A stretch of DNA of 32,000 nt from Candidatus Omnitrophota bacterium (GCA_963662715.1 OY759724.1:1590001-1622000); one strand, 5' to 3'; shown: positions 5,082-19,481, counted from the first letter of the stretch. Numbers and translations are program-made. Notes: generated by a model from the letters alone, not told the origin.

Positions 5082-5555
5082 ATGGAGAATTTATATAAAA
5101 ACTTTTTGAGGCCGGATGAGGCCGCGAAAGGAGGGGGCGTGACGGTTCATACAGCCTATATTCATTTATCGACCAACGGCCATGCCGATGTTGAAGATGT
5201 GACGCAGCAGGTGCAGCAAAAAGTATCGGCTTCAGGCCTGCAGGACGGAATTGTTACGGTGAGCGTCATCGGATCAACGGCGGCTGTCACAACCTGCGAG
5301 TTTGAACCCGGCCTGGTCAGGGATATTAAAGATATCCTGGATGCCCTGATCCCTCGAGGCTCTTATCATCATGATCAGACCTGGGGCGATGGGAACGGCC
5401 ATTCTCATTTAAGGGCTTCGCTGATCGGCCCGTCTTTGACCATCCCTTTTGCGGCAGGAAAGCTTATTTTAGGGACATGGCAGCAGATTATTCTTGTTGA
5501 TTGCGACAACAGGAGCAGAAAACGGCAGATTGTCGTGCAGATTTTGGGGGAATAA
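5082..5555 (+). CDS. YjbQ/UPF0047 family protein (secondary thiamine-phosphate synthase-like), divergent subtype
   Basis: The C-terminal signature GDGNGHSHLRASLIGPSLTIPF..GKLILGTWQQIILVDCD....RQIVVQILGE is typical of UPF0047. An alternative GTG start at 5139 directly follows AAAGGAGGGGG and would give a family-typical ~138 aa. Confidence 0.8.
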   Translation: MENLYKNFLRPDEAAKGGGVTVHTAYIHLSTNGHADVEDVTQQVQQKVSASGLQDGIVTVSVIGSTAAVTTCEFEPGLVRDIKDILDALIPRGSYHHDQTWGDGNGHSHLRASLIGPSLTIPFAAGKLILGTWQQIILVDCDNRSRKRQIVVQILGE

Positions 5556-10342: not shown

Positions 10343-11368
10343 ATGAAAAAATATATCTGGATGATATGTCTTTTGATCTTGGGAGTTCCTTTGCGGCCGG
10401 CATTTTGTCAGGAGGAGGACACGTCATATGCCGCCGATGACGGTGGCGGGGGGGCGAAAGTCTGGCAGGAATCTGTGGGATCATTAAGAAGACAAACCGA
10501 AGCCTTGCTGGACCGTAACAGGGAATTAAACGGAGAATATACATCCTTGCAGGAAAAAATCACGAATATTCAGATTAACATGAAGCAGATGAAAATCGAT
10601 ATTGAGAATTACCGTCAGGAAAATAAACAGTTGCAGGAGGCCCAGGAAAAGAATGCCCGGGAACAGAGAGAACTGGAAAAAAAGTTTTTGCAGGATCAGA
10701 AAGTTATTGAGCCCTTGGAGACACAAAATTCCGATTTAAAAAAGGAATGGATGGACGTCAAAAAGGAGACGGAGAAATGGCGGGAACGCGTTGCGGACCT
10801 TGAGCAGGAAAAACAGGAGTTGATCAGACAATTAAAAATGCGGGAAGAGTCTAAGGACGATATGTCGGGGGCCTTGGATGATGAGATAAAAAAATTGGAC
10901 AGTATTTTAGCAGGCTATGAAGACGAAGAAGCGCTTTTGGATCTGGAGAAGCAGTCGTATGACAAAGAAGAGGAAGAAATCGCCCGCATTAATGCCATGT
11001 TGGAAGGAGATATTGAAGATCTTGAATCTGAAGGGGATCAGCTGAAAGCTGAGATATCCGGGCAGAAAGAAGAGATCGCTCAAATCAAGCAGCCTAAAAA
11101 AGATGTCCGGATTTCTCCGGAAATGATTAAAGAGAAGAAAAGGCTTGAGGCTCATCTCGGTCAGTTGGAAAGTCAGCTGGAATCGATCAAAAAATCCGTA
11201 GAGGAAACGTCTTTGATTTTGGAAAAGAAACGCGCCTTGATGGATAAAATTATGGCCATAGATTCTGAGAACCGTGAATTAAGGGCGCAGGTCTCGGATT
11301 TAATGGATCAATTAAAAGACCTGAAACAGGAATCCCCTTCTGCGGATGCTGATCCTGACGTGAAGTGA
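10343..11368 (+). CDS. Secreted/periplasmic coiled-coil protein, function unknown
   Basis: N-terminal signal-like MKKYIWMICLLILGVPLRPAFCQEE, followed by ~300 aa of E/K/Q/L-rich heptad-like sequence. Confidence 0.7.
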   Translation: MKKYIWMICLLILGVPLRPAFCQEEDTSYAADDGGGGAKVWQESVGSLRRQTEALLDRNRELNGEYTSLQEKITNIQINMKQMKIDIENYRQENKQLQEAQEKNAREQRELEKKFLQDQKVIEPLETQNSDLKKEWMDVKKETEKWRERVADLEQEKQELIRQLKMREESKDDMSGALDDEIKKLDSILAGYEDEEALLDLEKQSYDKEEEEIARINAMLEGDIEDLESEGDQLKAEISGQKEEIAQIKQPKKDVRISPEMIKEKKRLEAHLGQLESQLESIKKSVEETSLILEKKRALMDKIMAIDSENRELRAQVSDLMDQLKDLKQESPSADADPDVK

Positions 11369-12056: not shown

Positions 12057-13217
12057 ATGAATGCAAGAATTTCTAAGACAGTCGAACATTTGGCCCCTTC
12101 CGGGATCAGAGCCTTTTTTGACCTGGTCCTGAATATGAAGGATGTTATCTCCTTAGGGGTCGGTGAACCGGATTTTGTTACGCCCTGGCGTATCAGGGAG
12201 AAAGCTATCTCTTCCCTGGAAGAAGGGTTTACGTCATACACGTCCAACAAGGGGATGATCGGGCTCCGGCGGGAAATTGCCCGGTTTTTATCAGCCCGTT
12301 ACGGAATTCATTATGACCCGGAGGACGAGATTCTCATTACAGTCGGCGTGTCAGAAGGCGTTGACCTGGCTGTCCGTGCCATTTTGAACCCCGGTGAGAA
12401 AGTTCTGGTTCCGGAACCCGCTTATGTCTCCTACGGCCCTGTTGTTGAACTGGCGGGGGGGAAGCCGGTGTATCTGAAAACCAGTCTTGAGCACGGCTTT
12501 AAATTGTCGGCACAGCTTATTGAGCAGGCTTGTGCGAACGGCCGGGTGAAAGCCCTGCTGATCAATTATCCGGCCAACCCGACCGGAGCTTCTTATACCC
12601 GCCGGGAATTATCGGCCATCGCTGCTGTTGTTAAAAAACATGATCTGCTTGTGATCAGCGATGAAGTTTATGATGAGCTGACGTATGATTTTGATCATAC
12701 GCCCCTGTCCTCTTTGCCGGGGATGAAGGGGCGGGTCATCTACTTGAACGGCTTTTCCAAGGCTTACGCTATGACGGGGTTCCGTCTGGGCTGGGCAAGC
12801 GGCCCCGCGGATTTGGTCGGGGCGATGACGAAAATCCATCAATACACGATGTTATGCGCTTCTATCACAGCGCAGATGGCGGGAGGAGAGGCCCTAAAAC
12901 ACGGCATGCGATCCGTTCAGGAGATGAAACGGGAGTATGACCGTCGCCGGCGTTTTATCGTTGATGCTTTGAACGATATCGGCTTAAGCTGTCACTTGCC
13001 TCAGGGGGCATTTTATGTTTTTCCTTCCATAGAAAAAACCCGGCAGTCTTCCTTGGATTTTGCCCAGGGGCTTTTGAAAAAGAAAAAAGTTGCGCTTGTC
13101 CCGGGGACGGCTTTCGGTCCTTCGTGCGACAATTTTGTGCGTATTTCCTATGCTTCGAGTTATGACAATCTTAAAGAAGCTGTACGCCGGATAAACGAAT
13201 ACGTTCAGACACTGTAA
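12057..13217 (+). CDS. Class I/II PLP-dependent aminotransferase (AspC/AlaT-like)
   Basis: Supporting motifs are LGVGEPDF, NYPANPTG and the PLP-lysine motif NGFSKAYAMTGFRLGW. Pairing with an upstream Lrp-family regulator mirrors the Bacillus subtilis alaR-alaT arrangement. Confidence 0.85.
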   Translation: MNARISKTVEHLAPSGIRAFFDLVLNMKDVISLGVGEPDFVTPWRIREKAISSLEEGFTSYTSNKGMIGLRREIARFLSARYGIHYDPEDEILITVGVSEGVDLAVRAILNPGEKVLVPEPAYVSYGPVVELAGGKPVYLKTSLEHGFKLSAQLIEQACANGRVKALLINYPANPTGASYTRRELSAIAAVVKKHDLLVISDEVYDELTYDFDHTPLSSLPGMKGRVIYLNGFSKAYAMTGFRLGWASGPADLVGAMTKIHQYTMLCASITAQMAGGEALKHGMRSVQEMKREYDRRRRFIVDALNDIGLSCHLPQGAFYVFPSIEKTRQSSLDFAQGLLKKKKVALVPGTAFGPSCDNFVRISYASSYDNLKEAVRRINEYVQTL

Positions 13218-13240: not shown

Positions 13241-13633
13241 ATGGCGCAAAGTCAGAACGATGATTTGGATTTTCAGATCGCTTTTTATGAAGGGATCCTG
13301 GAAAAAAGTCAGGATTTCCTGCAGGCCCTTATGGCGCTGGGAGACCTTTATACGAAAAAAGGATTGTACGAAAAAGGCTTGAACGTCGACCAGAAATTAG
13401 CCGAGATCCGGCCCAAGGACCCGTTAGTGCTTTATAACCTCGCTTGCAGTTACTCATTGCTGGGACAGGTGGATTTGGCTTATCAAGCCATGAAGCGCGC
13501 GCTGGCCTGCGGTTATAATGATTTTGAATATTTGCTTCAGGATAAAGACCTTGCCAATCTTCTCGCTGATAAGCGTTTTCAGCAGGTGCTTGCCCGGGCC
13601 AGAGGGCAGTCCATGTCTCACGATAAAAAATAA
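13241..13633 (+). CDS. Small TPR-repeat protein
   Basis: ATG at 13241; the track start at 13223 is TTG. TPR-like repeats are present (ALMALGDLYTKKGLYEKGLNVDQKLAEIRPKDPLVLYNLACSYSLLGQVDLAYQAMKRAL). The stop at 13631-13633 lies one base before the next start. Confidence 0.75.
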   Translation: MAQSQNDDLDFQIAFYEGILEKSQDFLQALMALGDLYTKKGLYEKGLNVDQKLAEIRPKDPLVLYNLACSYSLLGQVDLAYQAMKRALACGYNDFEYLLQDKDLANLLADKRFQQVLARARGQSMSHDKK

Positions 13634-13634
13634 T

Positions 13635-14759
13635 ATGACACATTCGGAAGATCAGGGACAACGATACCATCAGGTTAAGAATCAGCTGTTGTATTTGACC
13701 ATAGGGATGGATGTCGTGCTGTTGGTCCTTTGGGTGACGACAGGTCTTTCTGTCTGGCTGGCTCAAATGGCGCAGAGATTCTTTCCCTCGGTATGGATGA
13801 TAAATGCTGTTTATCTGGCAGGGTTTCAGCTGGCTTTTTCCGCTGTCCATTTCCCTTTTGATTTTTTTCTTGATTATTACTGGGAGCATCGATTCGGTTT
13901 GTCCCGTCAGTCATTATCGCAGTGGCTGAAAGATGTGGCGAAGAAATTTTTGTTGAGTTTCGTGTTCATCCTGGTCTTTGTTGAAGCCGTTTATTTCTTC
14001 CTGAGGCATTTTGCCCCTGTCTGGTGGGTGCTGGCCGCGGGGTTTTGGCTCTTGGCCTCTTTATTCCTGGCGCGTATACTGCCGCAGGTCATCATCCCTT
14101 TGTTTTATAAATATATTGAAATCGAAAACCCGTCACTTAAGGAACGGCTGATGTCTCTTTTCCGGAAGTGTGCGGTTCCCCTGCAGGATATTTACGCGAT
14201 CAATATGTCGGAGAAAACCAAGAAAGCCAATGCTTTTATCTGCGGGATCGGCCGTAGCCGGCGGGTTGTCCTGAGCGATACATTGATAAATAATTTTTCT
14301 GAAGAACAGATCGAAACAGTCGTGGCCCATGAATTAGGACACCATAAGAAGAAACATCTTCTTAAACTCATCGCCGTTAATGCCCTCCTTACCTTTGTGG
14401 CCTTCTTTGTCGTTCATCATGTCCTTTCCTGGGGGCTGGGCCGCTGGGGGAATATTCCCCTTGCTGATATTGCCGGGTTCCCTCTTCTGGTTTTGACGCT
14501 TCTTTTGTTCGGTTTTGTGACGACGCCTTTGAGTAACGCCATAAGCCGCGCTTTTGAAATAGAGGCTGATCGTTTCAGCATGCAGCTAACTCAGGAAAAA
14601 GAGCATTTTATCTCCATGCTGCAGAAAATCGGCGAGTTAAACCTTGCCGAGGTCGCCCCCCACTGGTTTAACGAAATGATGTTTCATGACCATCCTCCTT
14701 TGGAGAAAAGAATCAAACTTGCACAAGGGTATGATTATTCCCATGACAGGAACAGATAG
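13635..14759 (+). CDS. Ste24/CAAX-protease-like M48 family zinc metalloprotease (integral membrane)
   Basis: ATG at 13635; the longer track ORF overlaps the TPR gene out of frame. An N-terminal multi-TM module with LDYYWEHRFGLSRQS matches the Peptidase_M48_N type. It has HELGH, a distal EIEADRF and HDHPPLEKRI. Confidence 0.85.
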   Translation: MTHSEDQGQRYHQVKNQLLYLTIGMDVVLLVLWVTTGLSVWLAQMAQRFFPSVWMINAVYLAGFQLAFSAVHFPFDFFLDYYWEHRFGLSRQSLSQWLKDVAKKFLLSFVFILVFVEAVYFFLRHFAPVWWVLAAGFWLLASLFLARILPQVIIPLFYKYIEIENPSLKERLMSLFRKCAVPLQDIYAINMSEKTKKANAFICGIGRSRRVVLSDTLINNFSEEQIETVVAHELGHHKKKHLLKLIAVNALLTFVAFFVVHHVLSWGLGRWGNIPLADIAGFPLLVLTLLLFGFVTTPLSNAISRAFEIEADRFSMQLTQEKEHFISMLQKIGELNLAEVAPHWFNEMMFHDHPPLEKRIKLAQGYDYSHDRNR

Positions 14760-17580
14760 TCTTCAATCAGGGGTAAGACTGCTCCTCATCTTTGCCTGGA
14801 TGTTTTTGTCCGGAAGCCCGGCATCCGCCGGGCAGGCCCCCTCCTACAGGATCAGCGCGGAACTGGACACGCAACAAAAGACACTTGCGGCAACAGAAGT
14901 GCTGTCTTGGCGGAATCCGGGGCCGTCTCCCGTTGATCATATGGTTCTGCATATTTACCCGAACCGCCGGTATTCACAGGAAGAACAGGATTTCATGTTC
15001 CGTTACGGAGGCTATTTTAAAATCAATCCCTATCCCGAGGGGTTCCCGGAGAAAACGATGGATGTCATCAGTGTCCGTCAGCAGGGCCGGGGGCTTGATT
15101 ATGAAATTTCAGGAGAAGAAGCAACTCTGCTGACGGTCAAATTGCCGCATCCCCTGAAGAAGGGCGAGACGGCGGAGGTTGAGATCAGGTTTAAATTATT
15201 CCTGCCGCATGCTTACGGCCGTTATGGCTGGCATGAGAATATCATTAAATTATCCCGGTGGTACCCTATTCTTGCGGTTTATGAAAAGGAAGGCTGGAAC
15301 GAAAATCCCTTTTTCCCCTTTCACCGGCCTTTTTTCAGCGAAAGCTCTCTGTATGACGTTGAATTGACCGCTCCAGCGGACCAGGTGGTGATTCATACGG
15401 GGCGGAAAACCGGAGAAGAAAGGCTCGGGGCCGTAAAAAAATACCGCTTAAAGACAGACCTGCCTGTCCGGGAATTTACCCTGGCCTTAAGCGAAGATTA
15501 TCTGCTTAAGGAAGACCGGTTCGGCGACGTGAGGATTAAATCCTATTATCTGCCCGGCGATGAAGATGCGGCCCTTTTGGCTATCTCTGATGTGAAAGAT
15601 TTGATGGGGTTTTATTCGGAGCTGTTCGGCCCGTCCCCTTATAAAGAGTTCAGCCTTGCTCCTGTTCATCTGGGCTACGGGGGAGAGCAGATGGGGCAGA
15701 TGGCTTTTATAGATACGCGGGTTTACCGACTGCCGAAATTTCTCGACAAGTATTTTGATTTTCTGATATCGCATGAAACAGGGCATTTGTGGTTTTATAA
15801 CTTGGTCGGCATGAACGAGTATACGCAGATGTGGTTGGAGGAAGGGACGAACGCTTATTTTAACAATGAATATCTTTATTCTAAATACGGGGAAGACGCC
15901 GATATCCTGACTTATCCGGACTGGTTTAACGGGGGCTCGGTGTTGCTGCCCAGGTTTACCTTCAAACAGACGAGGATGTTCCGTTACCTGATGCTCGAAC
16001 GCAGCGGCTGGGACCATCCGGTCGTTGACAAATTGTCCAGTTTCCAAGAGCCCACGAGTATTTTTTCCATTACCTACGGGAAAGGGTCCAGGATCGTGGG
16101 GATGCTGGAAGCCGTGATCGGCCCGGAGACCTTCCGTAAAGTTTTTCAGCGTATTTTTAAAGAGTACTGTTTTAAGAATTTAGAGCTGCAGGACTTTATC
16201 CGCATTTGTGAAGAAGAGAGCGGGCAGGACCTTTCCATGTTTTTCGAACAATGGCTTTATAAGGCCGGCCGGTATGATTATGCCGTTGCCGGGGTGTCAG
16301 GGCAAAACATTATTTTGAAGAATTTGGGGGATATTGAAATGCCGGCTCCTGTCAAAGTGACTTTTGCGGACCAAAGCACCCGGACATTTATCTGGGACGG
16401 ACAGCAGAAAGAACAGAGCATTCCTATGGAAGGCCCGGCCCCGATAGAACGCGTCAGCATCGATCCCGAAGAGACTTTACTGGATGTTGACAGGGTCGAT
16501 AATCAATGGCCCAGAGCTTTCCACGTCAATGCTGTCCCGATTTATTGGGGACTTTACGATATCCCGCTGTTTCTCCCGGAAGACGGCTATAATATTGTCA
16601 TCGGGCCGGAATCGGCTAATTCCGGCCTGGGGCTCAAGGCATCCCTGCACCGTCCTTATGACTGGGTTCTATATTCCGGAACAGATTATGAATTCGGCGA
16701 ACAGCTTCTTCATTCCCGGCTGGGCTATCAATTAAAGAATGTCTTCCGTTCCCAAACGTCGGCCGGTTTTGAGTTGGCCAATACCCATGACTTTGATGAC
16801 GGAGACGATGACCTGGCCAGCGGCAAGGTTTATCTGCGCCAGGAACTTTGGCCGGCGGCGTATGGCGTGTTTAAGGATAATGATCACTGGACGCTTTATT
16901 TGATCCGGAACCAGCGGCTGGGGGATCGTCATGATGCCATCGTTAAGCAGGAAGAGGATCAGTATTTGGAATATTCCCGCCGTGAAGAAGCCATTGTGGG
17001 AGCCGTGCTGCATCTGGACCGCACCGGGCCTTATCCTGACCCGAGACAAGGCTGGGGTGCGCATGCTTTCCTGGAAAGTGCGGGGCATTTCCTGGGCGCG
17101 ACCCAGTATTTTTACCGTTCCGGTTTTGACGTGCGGATCATCGAACCTGTCAGCCCGCAGACCCGGCTGGCCCTGCGGGTCAAGTACGGCTGGGGTTATC
17201 CCCGGCATAAGGAACTTTTTCATTTGGGCGGGATGGACGGCCTGCGGGGATATCAACGAAAAGATGTGCGGGGCGCGAACATAATTCTGGGGAGCGCTGA
17301 ATACCGGTTTCCTCTGCTTCCGTCTCTGGATATCTCGGTCGCCGACCATCTTTTCGGAATCGAGTCGTTAGGCGGCGTGATATTTTTTGACGCCGGTCAA
17401 AGCTGGATGGAGAATTTTTCAGACGCTGATTTCAAAAAAGATGTCGGGGCCGGCTTGAGGGTTCAGGTGAATATCGGATCCTTTCTGGAAAAGATCACCG
17501 TGCGTTTGGATGTGGCGCAGGCTTTGGGGGAACCCCAAGAGGACACAAGGTTCTGGTTCGGCCTGAATCATGCCTTCTGA
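14743..17580 (+). CDS. M1-family zinc aminopeptidase fused to a C-terminal Omp85/BamA-type (Bac_surface_Ag) beta-barrel
   Basis: One uninterrupted ORF. Possible starts are 14743, 14731 and 14686, all overlapping the M48 stop. Signal-like LLLIFAWMFLSGSPASA. HETGH at 15772-15786 is followed by WLEEG (HExxH-X18-E). The C-terminus carries GGMDGLRGYQ, VIFFDAGQSW, DVGAGLRVQ and ends ...FGLNHAF. Confidence 0.85.
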   Translation: MTGTDSLQSGVRLLLIFAWMFLSGSPASAGQAPSYRISAELDTQQKTLAATEVLSWRNPGPSPVDHMVLHIYPNRRYSQEEQDFMFRYGGYFKINPYPEGFPEKTMDVISVRQQGRGLDYEISGEEATLLTVKLPHPLKKGETAEVEIRFKLFLPHAYGRYGWHENIIKLSRWYPILAVYEKEGWNENPFFPFHRPFFSESSLYDVELTAPADQVVIHTGRKTGEERLGAVKKYRLKTDLPVREFTLALSEDYLLKEDRFGDVRIKSYYLPGDEDAALLAISDVKDLMGFYSELFGPSPYKEFSLAPVHLGYGGEQMGQMAFIDTRVYRLPKFLDKYFDFLISHETGHLWFYNLVGMNEYTQMWLEEGTNAYFNNEYLYSKYGEDADILTYPDWFNGGSVLLPRFTFKQTRMFRYLMLERSGWDHPVVDKLSSFQEPTSIFSITYGKGSRIVGMLEAVIGPETFRKVFQRIFKEYCFKNLELQDFIRICEEESGQDLSMFFEQWLYKAGRYDYAVAGVSGQNIILKNLGDIEMPAPVKVTFADQSTRTFIWDGQQKEQSIPMEGPAPIERVSIDPEETLLDVDRVDNQWPRAFHVNAVPIYWGLYDIPLFLPEDGYNIVIGPESANSGLGLKASLHRPYDWVLYSGTDYEFGEQLLHSRLGYQLKNVFRSQTSAGFELANTHDFDDGDDDLASGKVYLRQELWPAAYGVFKDNDHWTLYLIRNQRLGDRHDAIVKQEEDQYLEYSRREEAIVGAVLHLDRTGPYPDPRQGWGAHAFLESAGHFLGATQYFYRSGFDVRIIEPVSPQTRLALRVKYGWGYPRHKELFHLGGMDGLRGYQRKDVRGANIILGSAEYRFPLLPSLDISVADHLFGIESLGGVIFFDAGQSWMENFSDADFKKDVGAGLRVQVNIGSFLEKITVRLDVAQALGEPQEDTRFWFGLNHAF

Positions 17581-17678: not shown

Positions 17679-18098
17679 ATGAAAAGTTATCGAGAAGAAC
17701 TCTGGTTTAATACCAGTTCCCGCAGGAATTACCTCAATATTACGGATAAGGTGCAGGAGGCTATCCAGAAGAGCGGGATAAAAGAAGGACTGTGCCTCGT
17801 CAACGCTATGCATATCACGGCCAGTGTCTATATCAATGACGATGAGTCGGGCTTGATCCAGGATTATGATGACTGGCTGGAGAAGCTGGCGCCCCATGCC
17901 CCGGTGTCTCATTACCGGCACAACCGGACCGGGGAAGACAACGGGGATGCGCATCTTAAGCGTCAGATTATGGGGCGGGAGGTGGTTGTGGCCGTTACTC
18001 AGGGGCGTCTGGATTTTGGCCCGTGGGAACAGATTTTCTACGGGGAGTTCGACGGCCGCCGCAAAAAACGTGTTTTAGTGAAGATCATCGGAGAGTAA
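17679..18098 (+). CDS. YjbQ/UPF0047 family protein, canonical subtype
   Basis: AGGGAGG lies upstream of the ATG. The 139-aa product carries [52 protein letters not shown] and RVLVKIIGE. Confidence 0.85.
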
Positions 18099-18347: not shown

Positions 18348-19481
18348 ATGTTTCATCGCCGGATCCTTATTATTGAAGATGACGTAAACCTGGGGAATTT
18401 AGTCGGGGAGTTGTTTAAAGAACGCAACTTTGATGTTGACTTGGCTCATAGCGGTCAGGAGGCCATTGAAAAAGTAAAATTGCATCCGGATATTATTTTG
18501 CTTGATCGAAACCTTCCGGATATGGAAGGCCTTGATTTTTGCCGTATGGTTCGGGAAGACAAGCGGTTCCGGGGTGTTCCGATTATTATTATCAGCGGAC
18601 GGGACACGACGGAAGATAAGATTCAGGGACTGTATATCGGGGCGGATGATTATATTACAAAACCGTTTTTGCCCGCTGAGCTTATGGCTCGTGTTGATGT
18701 TATATTACGCCGGGTGCATTTTGCCAATCAATTGCAGGAAGAAAGAGAGGAGTTCCTGGCTGAGTTGGACAGGATTATGAAAGAGGATCTTATTACGATC
18801 TTTTATCAGCCTATCTTTCATTTTCAGACTAACCAGCCGTTGGGATTTGAAGTGTTAAGCCGCCCGCCTCAGGACAGCGTTTTAAGCAATCCGGAATTTC
18901 TTTTCAAGGTTGCTCTTTCCTGCGGAAAATATTATGAATTGGAAATGTATTGCTGGAAGAAAGCTTTTTCCCAATGGAAGAAAGCTGCAAGATTTGAGAA
19001 CCTTTTCCTGAATTGCAGCCCTTATCTGGTGGAATGCGGAGAGTTTGATAAGAGCATCTTGGAAAAAGCCGGGCTGGATCCCCAGCAAATCGTTATGGAA
19101 CTTACCGAACGCATTGCGATCAACGATTATGGATATTTTTACAGCAAGCTGCATGAGTTCAGGAAAATGGATATCAAAATAGCGGTGGATGACGTGGGAT
19201 GCGGATACGCCAGTCTGAACATGGTGGCAGAAATAAAACCGCTGTTTTTGAAAATAGACGCTCCTTTAGTCCGGTCTATAGAAAAAGATAAATTAAAGCA
19301 GGATATCGTTGATGCCATTATCGGGTTTTCCCGGAAAAACGGTATGATCACCATCGCAGAAGGCATTGAAACCGAGTCGGAACTTCAACAAGTCCGGTCC
19401 TTAGGTGTGGATGCCGGGCAGGGGTTTTTCCTGGCCAGGCCGAACCCCTCTTTAACCGCTACCTATCAACTGAAGTCTTAA
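18348..19481 (+). CDS. Response regulator with a REC domain and an EAL-type c-di-GMP phosphodiesterase domain
   Basis: REC motifs are ILIIEDD, ILLDRNLPDMEG and ITKPF. EAL-domain motifs are YQPIF......GFEVLSRP, LFLNCSP, ELTER, KIAVDDVGCGYASL, LKID, IAEGIE and GQGF. Confidence 0.85.
   Translation: MFHRRILIIEDDVNLGNLVGELFKERNFDVDLAHSGQEAIEKVKLHPDIILLDRNLPDMEGLDFCRMVREDKRFRGVPIIIISGRDTTEDKIQGLYIGADDYITKPFLPAELMARVDVILRRVHFANQLQEEREEFLAELDRIMKEDLITIFYQPIFHFQTNQPLGFEVLSRPPQDSVLSNPEFLFKVALSCGKYYELEMYCWKKAFSQWKKAARFENLFLNCSPYLVECGEFDKSILEKAGLDPQQIVMELTERIAINDYGYFYSKLHEFRKMDIKIAVDDVGCGYASLNMVAEIKPLFLKIDAPLVRSIEKDKLKQDIVDAIIGFSRKNGMITIAEGIETESELQQVRSLGVDAGQGFFLARPNPSLTATYQLKS

Follow-up and report, generated by a model that had tools for sequence, protein, structure and literature searches.

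We report that a gene in a 32,000-nucleotide (nt) stretch of DNA from Candidatus Omnitrophota bacterium (GCA_963662715.1 OY759724.1:1590001-1622000; hereafter "the window", with positions counted from its first letter) encodes, as a single polypeptide, an M1-type zinc peptidase and an Omp85-type outer-membrane barrel, and that this fusion, M1-Omp85, is a widespread and previously unstudied addition to the theme of enzymes built on an Omp85 scaffold. An earlier note on the window had pointed to the fusion, had described it as coupled to a Ste24-like M48 protease and a TPR protein encoded just upstream, and had offered two interpretations: a type-V-like system for surface display or release, or a three-part module for envelope proteolysis or quality control. 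The reading that we favour, with somewhat better than even confidence, is a different one: M1-Omp85 would be an M1 aminopeptidase that is tethered in the periplasm by a TamA/BamA-like barrel and trims N-termini, with the M48 and TPR proteins separate from it.

A zinc peptidase and an outer-membrane barrel in one polypeptide

The reading frame is open from 14686 to 17580 and, from the ATG at 14743, encodes 945 amino acids (aa), which confirms the uninterrupted open reading frame (ORF) with a signal-like N-terminus that had been described at 14743..17580; a public protein 100% identical to M1-Omp85 exists, on a 3.36-Mb contig. Conservation was assessed in an alignment of 64 family sequences (48-65% identity), and a full-length AlphaFold2 (AF2) model was built on 64 family members (predicted local distance difference test, pLDDT, 90.4; predicted template-modelling score, pTM, 0.90). 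The signal peptide, modelled as a helix (aa 6-22) followed by a low-confidence segment, is weakly conserved (17% identity).

The N-terminal half of the protein contains the complete M1 gluzincin core that the earlier note had recognized. Pfam gives a Peptidase_M1 (PF01433) match of 1.2e-22 (81 bits against a cut-off of 27.7); HETGH and WLEEG are both in place (Table 1); the zinc-site residues H344, E345, H348, and E367 have HEXXH-X18-E spacing and are invariant in 64/64 sequences; and Y445 is likewise invariant, lying in a segment, ITYGKGS, that aligns to ISYSKGS of aminopeptidase A (4kx7; YxKG motif). The sequence GG-EQ, of which E315 and Q316 are invariant, aligns in HMMER to GAMEN of human aminopeptidase A (4kx7) with a one-residue gap, with Glu retained and with Gln in place of Asn. 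As judged from this alignment, the predicted amine-binding Glu is kept, and the motif equivalent to GXMEN is not canonical. The full-length model assigns residues 34-510 to the N-terminal beta domain of M1 enzymes and to the thermolysin-like catalytic domain, and in Foldseek searches the first ~590 residues match IRAP, ERAP1, ERAP2, and tricorn factor F3 at ~1e-25 over ~590 columns. Judged by its sequence, the M1 enzyme appears to be active, and aminopeptidase activity is predicted.

The segment that follows had been described as an all-beta linker and not a POTRA repeat, and the model bears this out: aa 513-573 form six strands and no helix, and are therefore not a POTRA domain. The ~590-column Foldseek alignments to full M1 enzymes extend across this beta-sandwich (aa 511-575), which, according to the model, is M1 domain III. 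Among the profile hidden Markov model (HMM) searches that the earlier note had proposed, those for Peptidase_M1, Omp85, M48_N with M48, and TPR gave matches in the three genes and that for POTRA did not; no POTRA match was obtained in the Pfam scan of M1-Omp85 or in that of any of ten representatives. The helical C-terminal domain IV of M1 enzymes is not present in the model, in which the residues after aa 575 form a connector and the barrel.

Omp85 hallmarks had been claimed for the last ~350 aa, and all of the motifs were located, in a region that matches Omp85 PF01103 in Pfam (1.3e-15; 58.2 bits against a cut-off of 24). The top 50 Foldseek matches listed for the full-length model are M1 enzymes throughout, and the last 445 residues were therefore modelled separately (pLDDT 87). 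Two independent AF2 runs place sixteen strands over aa 615-941, and the best PDB match of the barrel is the barrel of Escherichia coli TamA (4n74; 5.5e-10), followed by Pseudomonas aeruginosa TamA and many BamA structures (Foldseek). The longest connections between strands are those between strands 7 and 8 (L4) and between strands 11 and 12 (L6), the latter of which holds LRGY; in the model this pattern corresponds to canonical Omp85 topology, which would place the N-terminus of beta1 in the periplasm. The lid-lock motifs are LRGY (aa 834-837) and, on beta13, FFDAG (aa 881-885). Residues R835, G836, F881, G885, W888, and F945 are invariant, and D883 is present in 61/64 sequences; beta16 is short (aa 936-941), Gly940 is near-invariant, and the protein ends in a Phe, F945. 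A single-sequence phmmer search of the PDB with aa 511-945 gave no match even at E<=10, and the identity of the barrel therefore rests on Pfam and structure comparison. No NCBIfam model reaches its cut-off for M1-Omp85 (the BamA model scores 32 bits vs. 297), and so no curated family claims it.

The connector between the two halves (aa 576-614) carries the motif LLDxDRxNNxWPR and is modelled as a short strand and a short helix, with pLDDT of ~90-94. The junction residues D574, D583, W589, P590, and R591 are invariant, and the length of the junction differs by >8 aa in 1/64 aligned sequences. Mean identity is 56% in the catalytic domain, 56% in the connector, and 56% in the barrel. With similar constraint on enzyme, connector, and barrel, the junction does not look like a disposable linker. 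We conclude that the connector is conserved and, as modelled, structured, and hence is not a flexible or cleavable spacer.

Conservation and distribution of the fusion

The homologue list comprises at least 120 matches, drawn from NCBI, JGI, ENA, and Logan assemblies. Both PF01433 and PF01103 are present on 120/120 listed homologues, which are full-length and come from independent assemblies. A scan of one genome per species yielded 109 loci, of which the 80 kept are almost all from Omnitrophota metagenome-assembled genomes and have 37-66% identity. Neighbouring genes at these 80 loci were searched for with the proteins of the window and with HMMs built from the matches; 56 loci were informative (at least 5 kb of upstream sequence), and the counts of neighbouring genes given below refer to these. 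The earlier note had raised the concern that an assembly or frameshift error might have joined two separate genes. The two-domain homologues, the 109 loci, and the invariant junction residues effectively refute this explanation, for which we found no supporting point and to which we assign a negligible probability.

The fusion extends well beyond close relatives. In an exhaustive search of 50%-identity cluster representatives, 897 proteins match at E<=1e-30, and full-length proteins with M1 and barrel are found down to 27-34% identity. Members from Gemmataceae/Planctomycetota carry the same two Pfam domains. Another large set, of M1 proteins of ~900-1000 aa that begin with a signal peptide and end in an aromatic residue, is found in KSB1, WOR-3, TA06, Edwardsbacteria, and Zixibacteria; by profile comparison, the C-terminal ~400 residues of representatives of this set (KSB1, WOR-3, TA06, and Zixibacteria) are homologous to the barrel (probability 95-97%, E 1e-7 to 1e-10), and for some proteins of the set precomputed PF01103 matches already exist. 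In automated annotation, M1-Omp85 proteins go under the names 'M1 family aminopeptidase' or 'BamA/TamA family outer membrane protein'.

Barrel-less relatives also occur. Many are short (~500-680 aa) and consist of the M1 module, in some cases with the beta-sandwich; their existence suggests that a soluble form preceded the fusion. One public protein of 1204 aa (P0140) has the M1 and beta-sandwich module in tandem duplicate and no barrel.

Location and action of the peptidase

According to the hypothesis that M1-Omp85 is a tethered aminopeptidase, one Sec-exported polypeptide would carry M1 domains I-III and the barrel; the 16-strand barrel would anchor the peptidase permanently in the outer membrane and would take the place of the helical domain IV of ordinary M1 enzymes; the peptidase would, like the enzyme domain of PlpD, be held at the periplasmic side of the outer membrane; its substrates would be peptides or unfolded exported polypeptides arriving at the inner face of that membrane, whose free N-termini it would trim; and the Ste24-type M48 protease would form, with the TPR protein of the cytoplasm, a separate inner-membrane/cytoplasmic pair that is co-transcribed with the fusion in this lineage by coincidence. 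We infer the location of the peptidase, as we do its activity and its substrates. The periplasm is predicted because the N-terminus of beta1 would be periplasmic, because the L6 and beta13 lid-lock closes BamA and TamA outward, and because PlpD provides a precedent: the patatin domain of PlpD has been found to be exclusively periplasmic, revising the type Vd paradigm, and passenger translocation itself is disputed for PlpD (Hanson et al., 2024; PMC11116518).

Several points weigh against this hypothesis. The periplasmic location is argued from topology rules applied to a model and from analogy, and the localisation and activity of family members are predicted from sequences and models. The counterpart of GXMEN is altered (GG-EQ, one residue shorter), which leaves strict aminopeptidase specificity unproven, and the lack of domain IV could leave the cleft open, permitting endopeptidase action. 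In addition, the TPR gene adjoins the fusion in 41/56 loci, and the arrangement TPR-M48(-PilZ) recurs upstream of it in relatives with as little as 37-42% identity; a functional link between these genes and the fusion may exist.

Surface display or release, the first interpretation of the earlier note, would have the M1 peptidase exported in a type-V-like manner to digest extracellular peptides for nutrition. The order of the protein, with an N-terminal signal peptide, then a passenger, then a barrel, is as expected for such a system, and the family is common in phyla of uncultivated anaerobic heterotrophs, for which the use of extracellular peptides is plausible. There is also a precedent in AaaA of P. 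aeruginosa, which is surface-exposed and has an enzyme of family M28 and a classical type Va barrel of 12 strands. As in M1-Omp85, the aminopeptidase and the barrel that anchors it in the outer membrane are one polypeptide, and AaaA is described as an aminopeptidase autotransporter (PMC3426542). However, M1-Omp85 has neither a POTRA domain nor a long unstructured linker, its connector being short, structured, and conserved; the closed-lid motifs of BamA and TamA are kept; a zinc enzyme of ~560 aa would need to cross the membrane unfolded; and the only enzyme-Omp85 fusion that has been studied, PlpD, is periplasmic. The evidence thus disfavours surface display, which we regard as unlikely.

A second alternative is that the barrel is more than an anchor. 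M1-Omp85 could be a working BamA/TamA paralogue in which the POTRA arm has been replaced by the M1 peptidase, and in which outer-membrane protein (OMP) clients that are stalled or carry a beta-signal are engaged at the beta1/beta16 seam and degraded from the N-terminus as a built-in form of quality control. The barrel is nearest to TamA and BamA; beta16 is short, with a near-invariant Gly940 and a terminal Phe; the equal conservation of halves and connector, together with the pTM of 0.90, suggests a fixed geometry between the halves; and one distant relative is encoded beside three genes for SurA-like chaperones. However, barrel opening or substrate binding is purely hypothetical, constraints on folding and insertion could equally explain the conservation of the barrel, the SurA-like neighbourhood is a single case, and M1 enzymes usually trim oligopeptides. 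We consider that this alternative has only a small chance of being correct. A variant, in which unfolded or stalled OMP clients, or imported or exported peptides, at the seam or in the lumen would be fed straight to the M1 site (a 'degradative BamA'), seems to us similarly doubtful; if true, it would be an undescribed coupling of membrane-protein recognition to proteolysis, present across several candidate phyla.

Relation to known Omp85 proteins and M1 enzymes

Until recently, the Omp85 proteins that had been studied were thought to assemble or translocate proteins by means of POTRA-guided barrels, and PlpD then provided a case in which the Omp85 scaffold serves instead to keep an enzyme in the periplasm. 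PlpD and M1-Omp85 both have an N-terminal hydrolytic enzyme and a C-terminal 16-strand Omp85 barrel in one polypeptide; PlpD has a patatin lipase and one POTRA domain, whereas M1-Omp85 has an M1 zinc peptidase and no POTRA domain. M1-Omp85 would add an unrelated second case that is far more widespread, being found in Omnitrophota, Planctomycetota, and several candidate phyla of the FCB group. It bears on the question of whether Omp85 barrels are mere anchors or substrate-handling devices, and on how outer-membrane proteolysis is organised in diderm phyla about which little is known.

Heinz and Lithgow distinguished ten Omp85/TpsB subfamilies, including the non-POTRA types 'Metallo' (PF00149), WD40, patatin, and noNterm, and proposed roles in periplasmic quality control or export for the non-POTRA subfamilies (PMC4104836). 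These subfamilies resemble M1-Omp85 in having a barrel with a non-POTRA N-terminal module and an uncharacterised function. The 'Metallo' subfamily differs in its N-terminal domain, which is PF00149; M1-Omp85 has PF01433 and no PF00149 match in Pfam. Neither PF01433 nor M1 occurs in the text of that classification, the list of which is repeated in later papers, and we found no paper on the M1-Omp85 architecture in the literature searched, in keeping with the view of the earlier note that no example had been characterised.

With TamA and BamA, M1-Omp85 shares sixteen strands, the L6 motif (L/V)RG(Y/F), the beta13 FxDxG lid-lock, and a C-terminal aromatic residue; it differs in having no POTRA domain, and the window shows no evident partner of the TamB or BAM lipoprotein kind. 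With M1 aminopeptidases (PepN, ERAP1/IRAP, tricorn factor F3, LTA4H) it shares domains I-III, the zinc ligands, the catalytic Tyr, and the exopeptidase-motif Glu; it differs in having a barrel for domain IV and GG-EQ for GAMEN, and in being, by prediction, exported and anchored in the outer membrane.

Gene neighbourhood

The genes upstream of M1-Omp85 are tightly packed, as the earlier note had described (Table 1): the ATG of M1-Omp85 (14743) overlaps the TAG stop of the M48 gene (14757-14759) by 17 nt, and the ATG of the M48 gene (13635) follows the TAA stop of the TPR gene (13631-13633) after one base. The aminotransferase gene upstream of the TPR gene, with its stop at 13217, is packed equally tightly. 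Predicted promoters and terminators between 10 and 19 kb were no more numerous than in shuffled sequence (16 vs. 10.5±3.5 and 14 vs. 11.4±2.9), and the operon structure is therefore proposed from spacing only.

Table 1. Coordinates of genes, domains, and motifs in the window.
Feature	Position	Strand	Basis
Small TPR protein, 130 aa from ATG 13241 (136 aa from TTG 13223)	13241..13633	+	Pfam, NCBIfam
Ste24-type (M48A-like) integral-membrane zinc protease, 374 aa	13635..14759	+	Pfam, hydropathy, motifs
M48 HELGH, aa 232	14328-14342		
M48 EIEAD, aa 308	14556-14570		
M1-Omp85 signal peptide, aa 1-29, ending ASA|G	14743..14829	+	sequence, model
Signal-like stretch LLLIFAWMFLSGSPASA (h-region)	14779-14829		
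M1 N-terminal beta domain and thermolysin-like catalytic domain, aa 30-510	14830..16272	+	Pfam, Foldseek
GGEQ	15679-15690, inside YGGEQM 15676-15693		
HETGH	15772-15786		
WLEEG holding E367 (HEXXH-X18-E)	15832-15846		
Catalytic Tyr445	within 16069-16089		
All-beta sandwich, equivalent to M1 domain III, aa 511-575	16273..16467	+	AlphaFold2, Foldseek
Conserved connector, aa 576-614	16468..16584	+	model, alignment
16-strand Omp85-type barrel, aa 615-945, plus stop codon	16585..17580	+	models, Foldseek, Pfam
L6 GGMDGLRGYQ	17227-17256		
beta13 VIFFDAGQSW	17377-17406		
DVGAGLRVQ	17440-17466		
Terminal GLNHAF	17560-17577		

The product of the M48 gene matches Peptidase_M48_N (8e-22; 78 bits) and Peptidase_M48 (6e-35; 121 bits), both above the Pfam cut-offs. 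In a crude hydropathy scan, one long hydrophobic segment was seen in addition to six clear ones; the multi-pass, Ste24-type character that had been proposed for this protein thus stands, and the number of seven transmembrane segments is approximate. Homologues of 366-375 aa in Omnitrophota are named M48 metallopeptidase or STE24 endopeptidase ('STE24 endopeptidase' being the JGI naming); each of the 120 listed matches has an identity of 41% or more to the query, and wherever a source is named it is Omnitrophota. By these sequence criteria, the M48 protein is a Ste24-type (M48A), multi-pass membrane protease. The small TPR protein matches Pfam TPR_17/TPR_2/TPR_8 and, above the cut-off, NCBIfam TPR_END_plus (3.6e-16). 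It has no signal peptide (N-terminus MAQSQNDDLDF) and is presumably cytoplasmic.

Upstream of M1-Omp85, the small TPR gene (41/56 loci) is the most frequent neighbour, followed by the aminotransferase (34/56), AsnC (33/56), a PilZ protein (27/56), and M48 and HhH-GPD (19/56 each). The fullest order, TPR - M48 - PilZ-domain protein - HhH-GPD (EndoIII-like) - M1-Omp85, extends to the most distant of the Omnitrophota members (e.g., L049, L054, L070, L079, and L080), and UPF0047 and PfkB lie downstream of M1-Omp85 in about half of the loci. The surrounding synteny block, of >15 kb, consists of unrelated housekeeping genes, in the window Era, YjeF_N, HhH-GPD, MgtE, and a Ddl-like gene. One locus, L084, keeps the order AsnC-aminotransferase-TPR-M48-PilZ-X-YjbQ-PfkB-Era-YjeF_N-HhH-GPD-MgtE, in which X (L084:9554-11305), a 583-aa TPR protein, replaces M1-Omp85. 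In the two KSB1-type loci examined, neither the M48 gene nor the small TPR gene was found upstream. Because most loci are without M48, L084 is without the fusion, and the KSB1-type loci are without M48 and TPR, we take M48 and M1-Omp85 to be independent. We conclude that the adjacency of M48 and TPR is lineage-specific and is not a conserved system. The survey of relatives proposed in the earlier note thus finds that the fusion is conserved and that the three-gene order is not, and the coupling claimed there holds as tight spacing in the window, which the aminotransferase gene shares, and not as constant association with M48. Gene overlaps in Omnitrophota are, on this showing, to be read as functional coupling only with caution.

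These observations bear on the proposal that TPR, M48, and M1-Omp85 form a three-gene quality-control module of the envelope, in the manner of a split BepA. BepA of E. coli is a soluble periplasmic fusion of M48 protease and TPR that acts with BAM. The likeness lies in M48 and TPR modules that are encoded beside an Omp85-family gene with a 1-nt gap and a 17-nt overlap, in the recurrence of the TPR-M48 pair upstream of the fusion in Omnitrophota down to 37% identity, and in the many listed M48 and M1-Omp85 homologues that lie on equal-sized contigs, some of them short, which fits adjacency. The differences are that the M48 protein here is membrane-integral and Ste24-type, with the membrane helices of M48_N, and not of the soluble periplasmic BepA type; that the TPR protein is separate and lacks a signal peptide; and that the linkage is inconsistent across relatives, with M48 at a minority of loci, with TPR-M48-PilZ retained in L084 without M1-Omp85, with neither partner adjoining the KSB1-type relatives, and with the genes set inside the block of unrelated housekeeping genes. 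A split BepA-like module is thus not supported, and we consider it very unlikely.

A public 1088-aa protein (P0033) fuses a small TPR to M1-Omp85 in one ORF and leaves the signal peptide internal. We considered this protein as evidence of TPR coupling and set it aside, since the internal signal peptide indicates that it is probably the product of a lost stop codon or a gene-call artefact.

The PilZ protein encoded between M48 and M1-Omp85 in 27/56 Omnitrophota loci is absent from the window. In its long form it has ~650 aa (L017:5909-7915, L080:5359-7392, and L036:4906-6858), comprising an N-terminal PilZ domain, a single transmembrane helix, a coiled coil, and, at the C-terminus, a domain of ~350 aa for which Pfam, NCBIfam, and the PDB (by sequence) gave no match; in L014, L024, L084, and L085 the protein is short and consists of PilZ only. 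The PilZ genes upstream of the fusion in relatives are of the cyclic di-GMP (c-di-GMP) receptor type, and in the window a response-regulator-EAL gene (c-di-GMP phosphodiesterase type) lies just downstream, at 18348-19481.

The window contains two paralogous UPF0047/YjbQ genes (5082-5555 and 17679-18098), which share a strand and are separated by 12 kb; the second is directly 3' of M1-Omp85, a position that it also has in about half of the relatives. At 10343-11368 the window encodes a highly charged, 341-aa coiled-coil protein with an N-terminal signal- or lipoprotein-like sequence (…LRPAFCQEE), which is kept at the same position in many relatives at only 24-53% identity. The HhH-GPD (EndoIII-like) gene of the window (22842-23504) is 5 kb downstream of the fusion and is 26% identical by tblastn to the copy in L080; in deeper-branching relatives its counterpart lies directly upstream of M1-Omp85, which fits local rearrangement within the syntenic block. 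Among more distant loci, a KSB1 locus has a second Omp85-family gene (DUF5686+Omp85; L081:1061-3298) 3 kb upstream of the M1-barrel gene, and in another distant locus (L083:10839-14642) three SurA-like peptidyl-prolyl isomerase genes and a TPR gene flank the M1-barrel gene.

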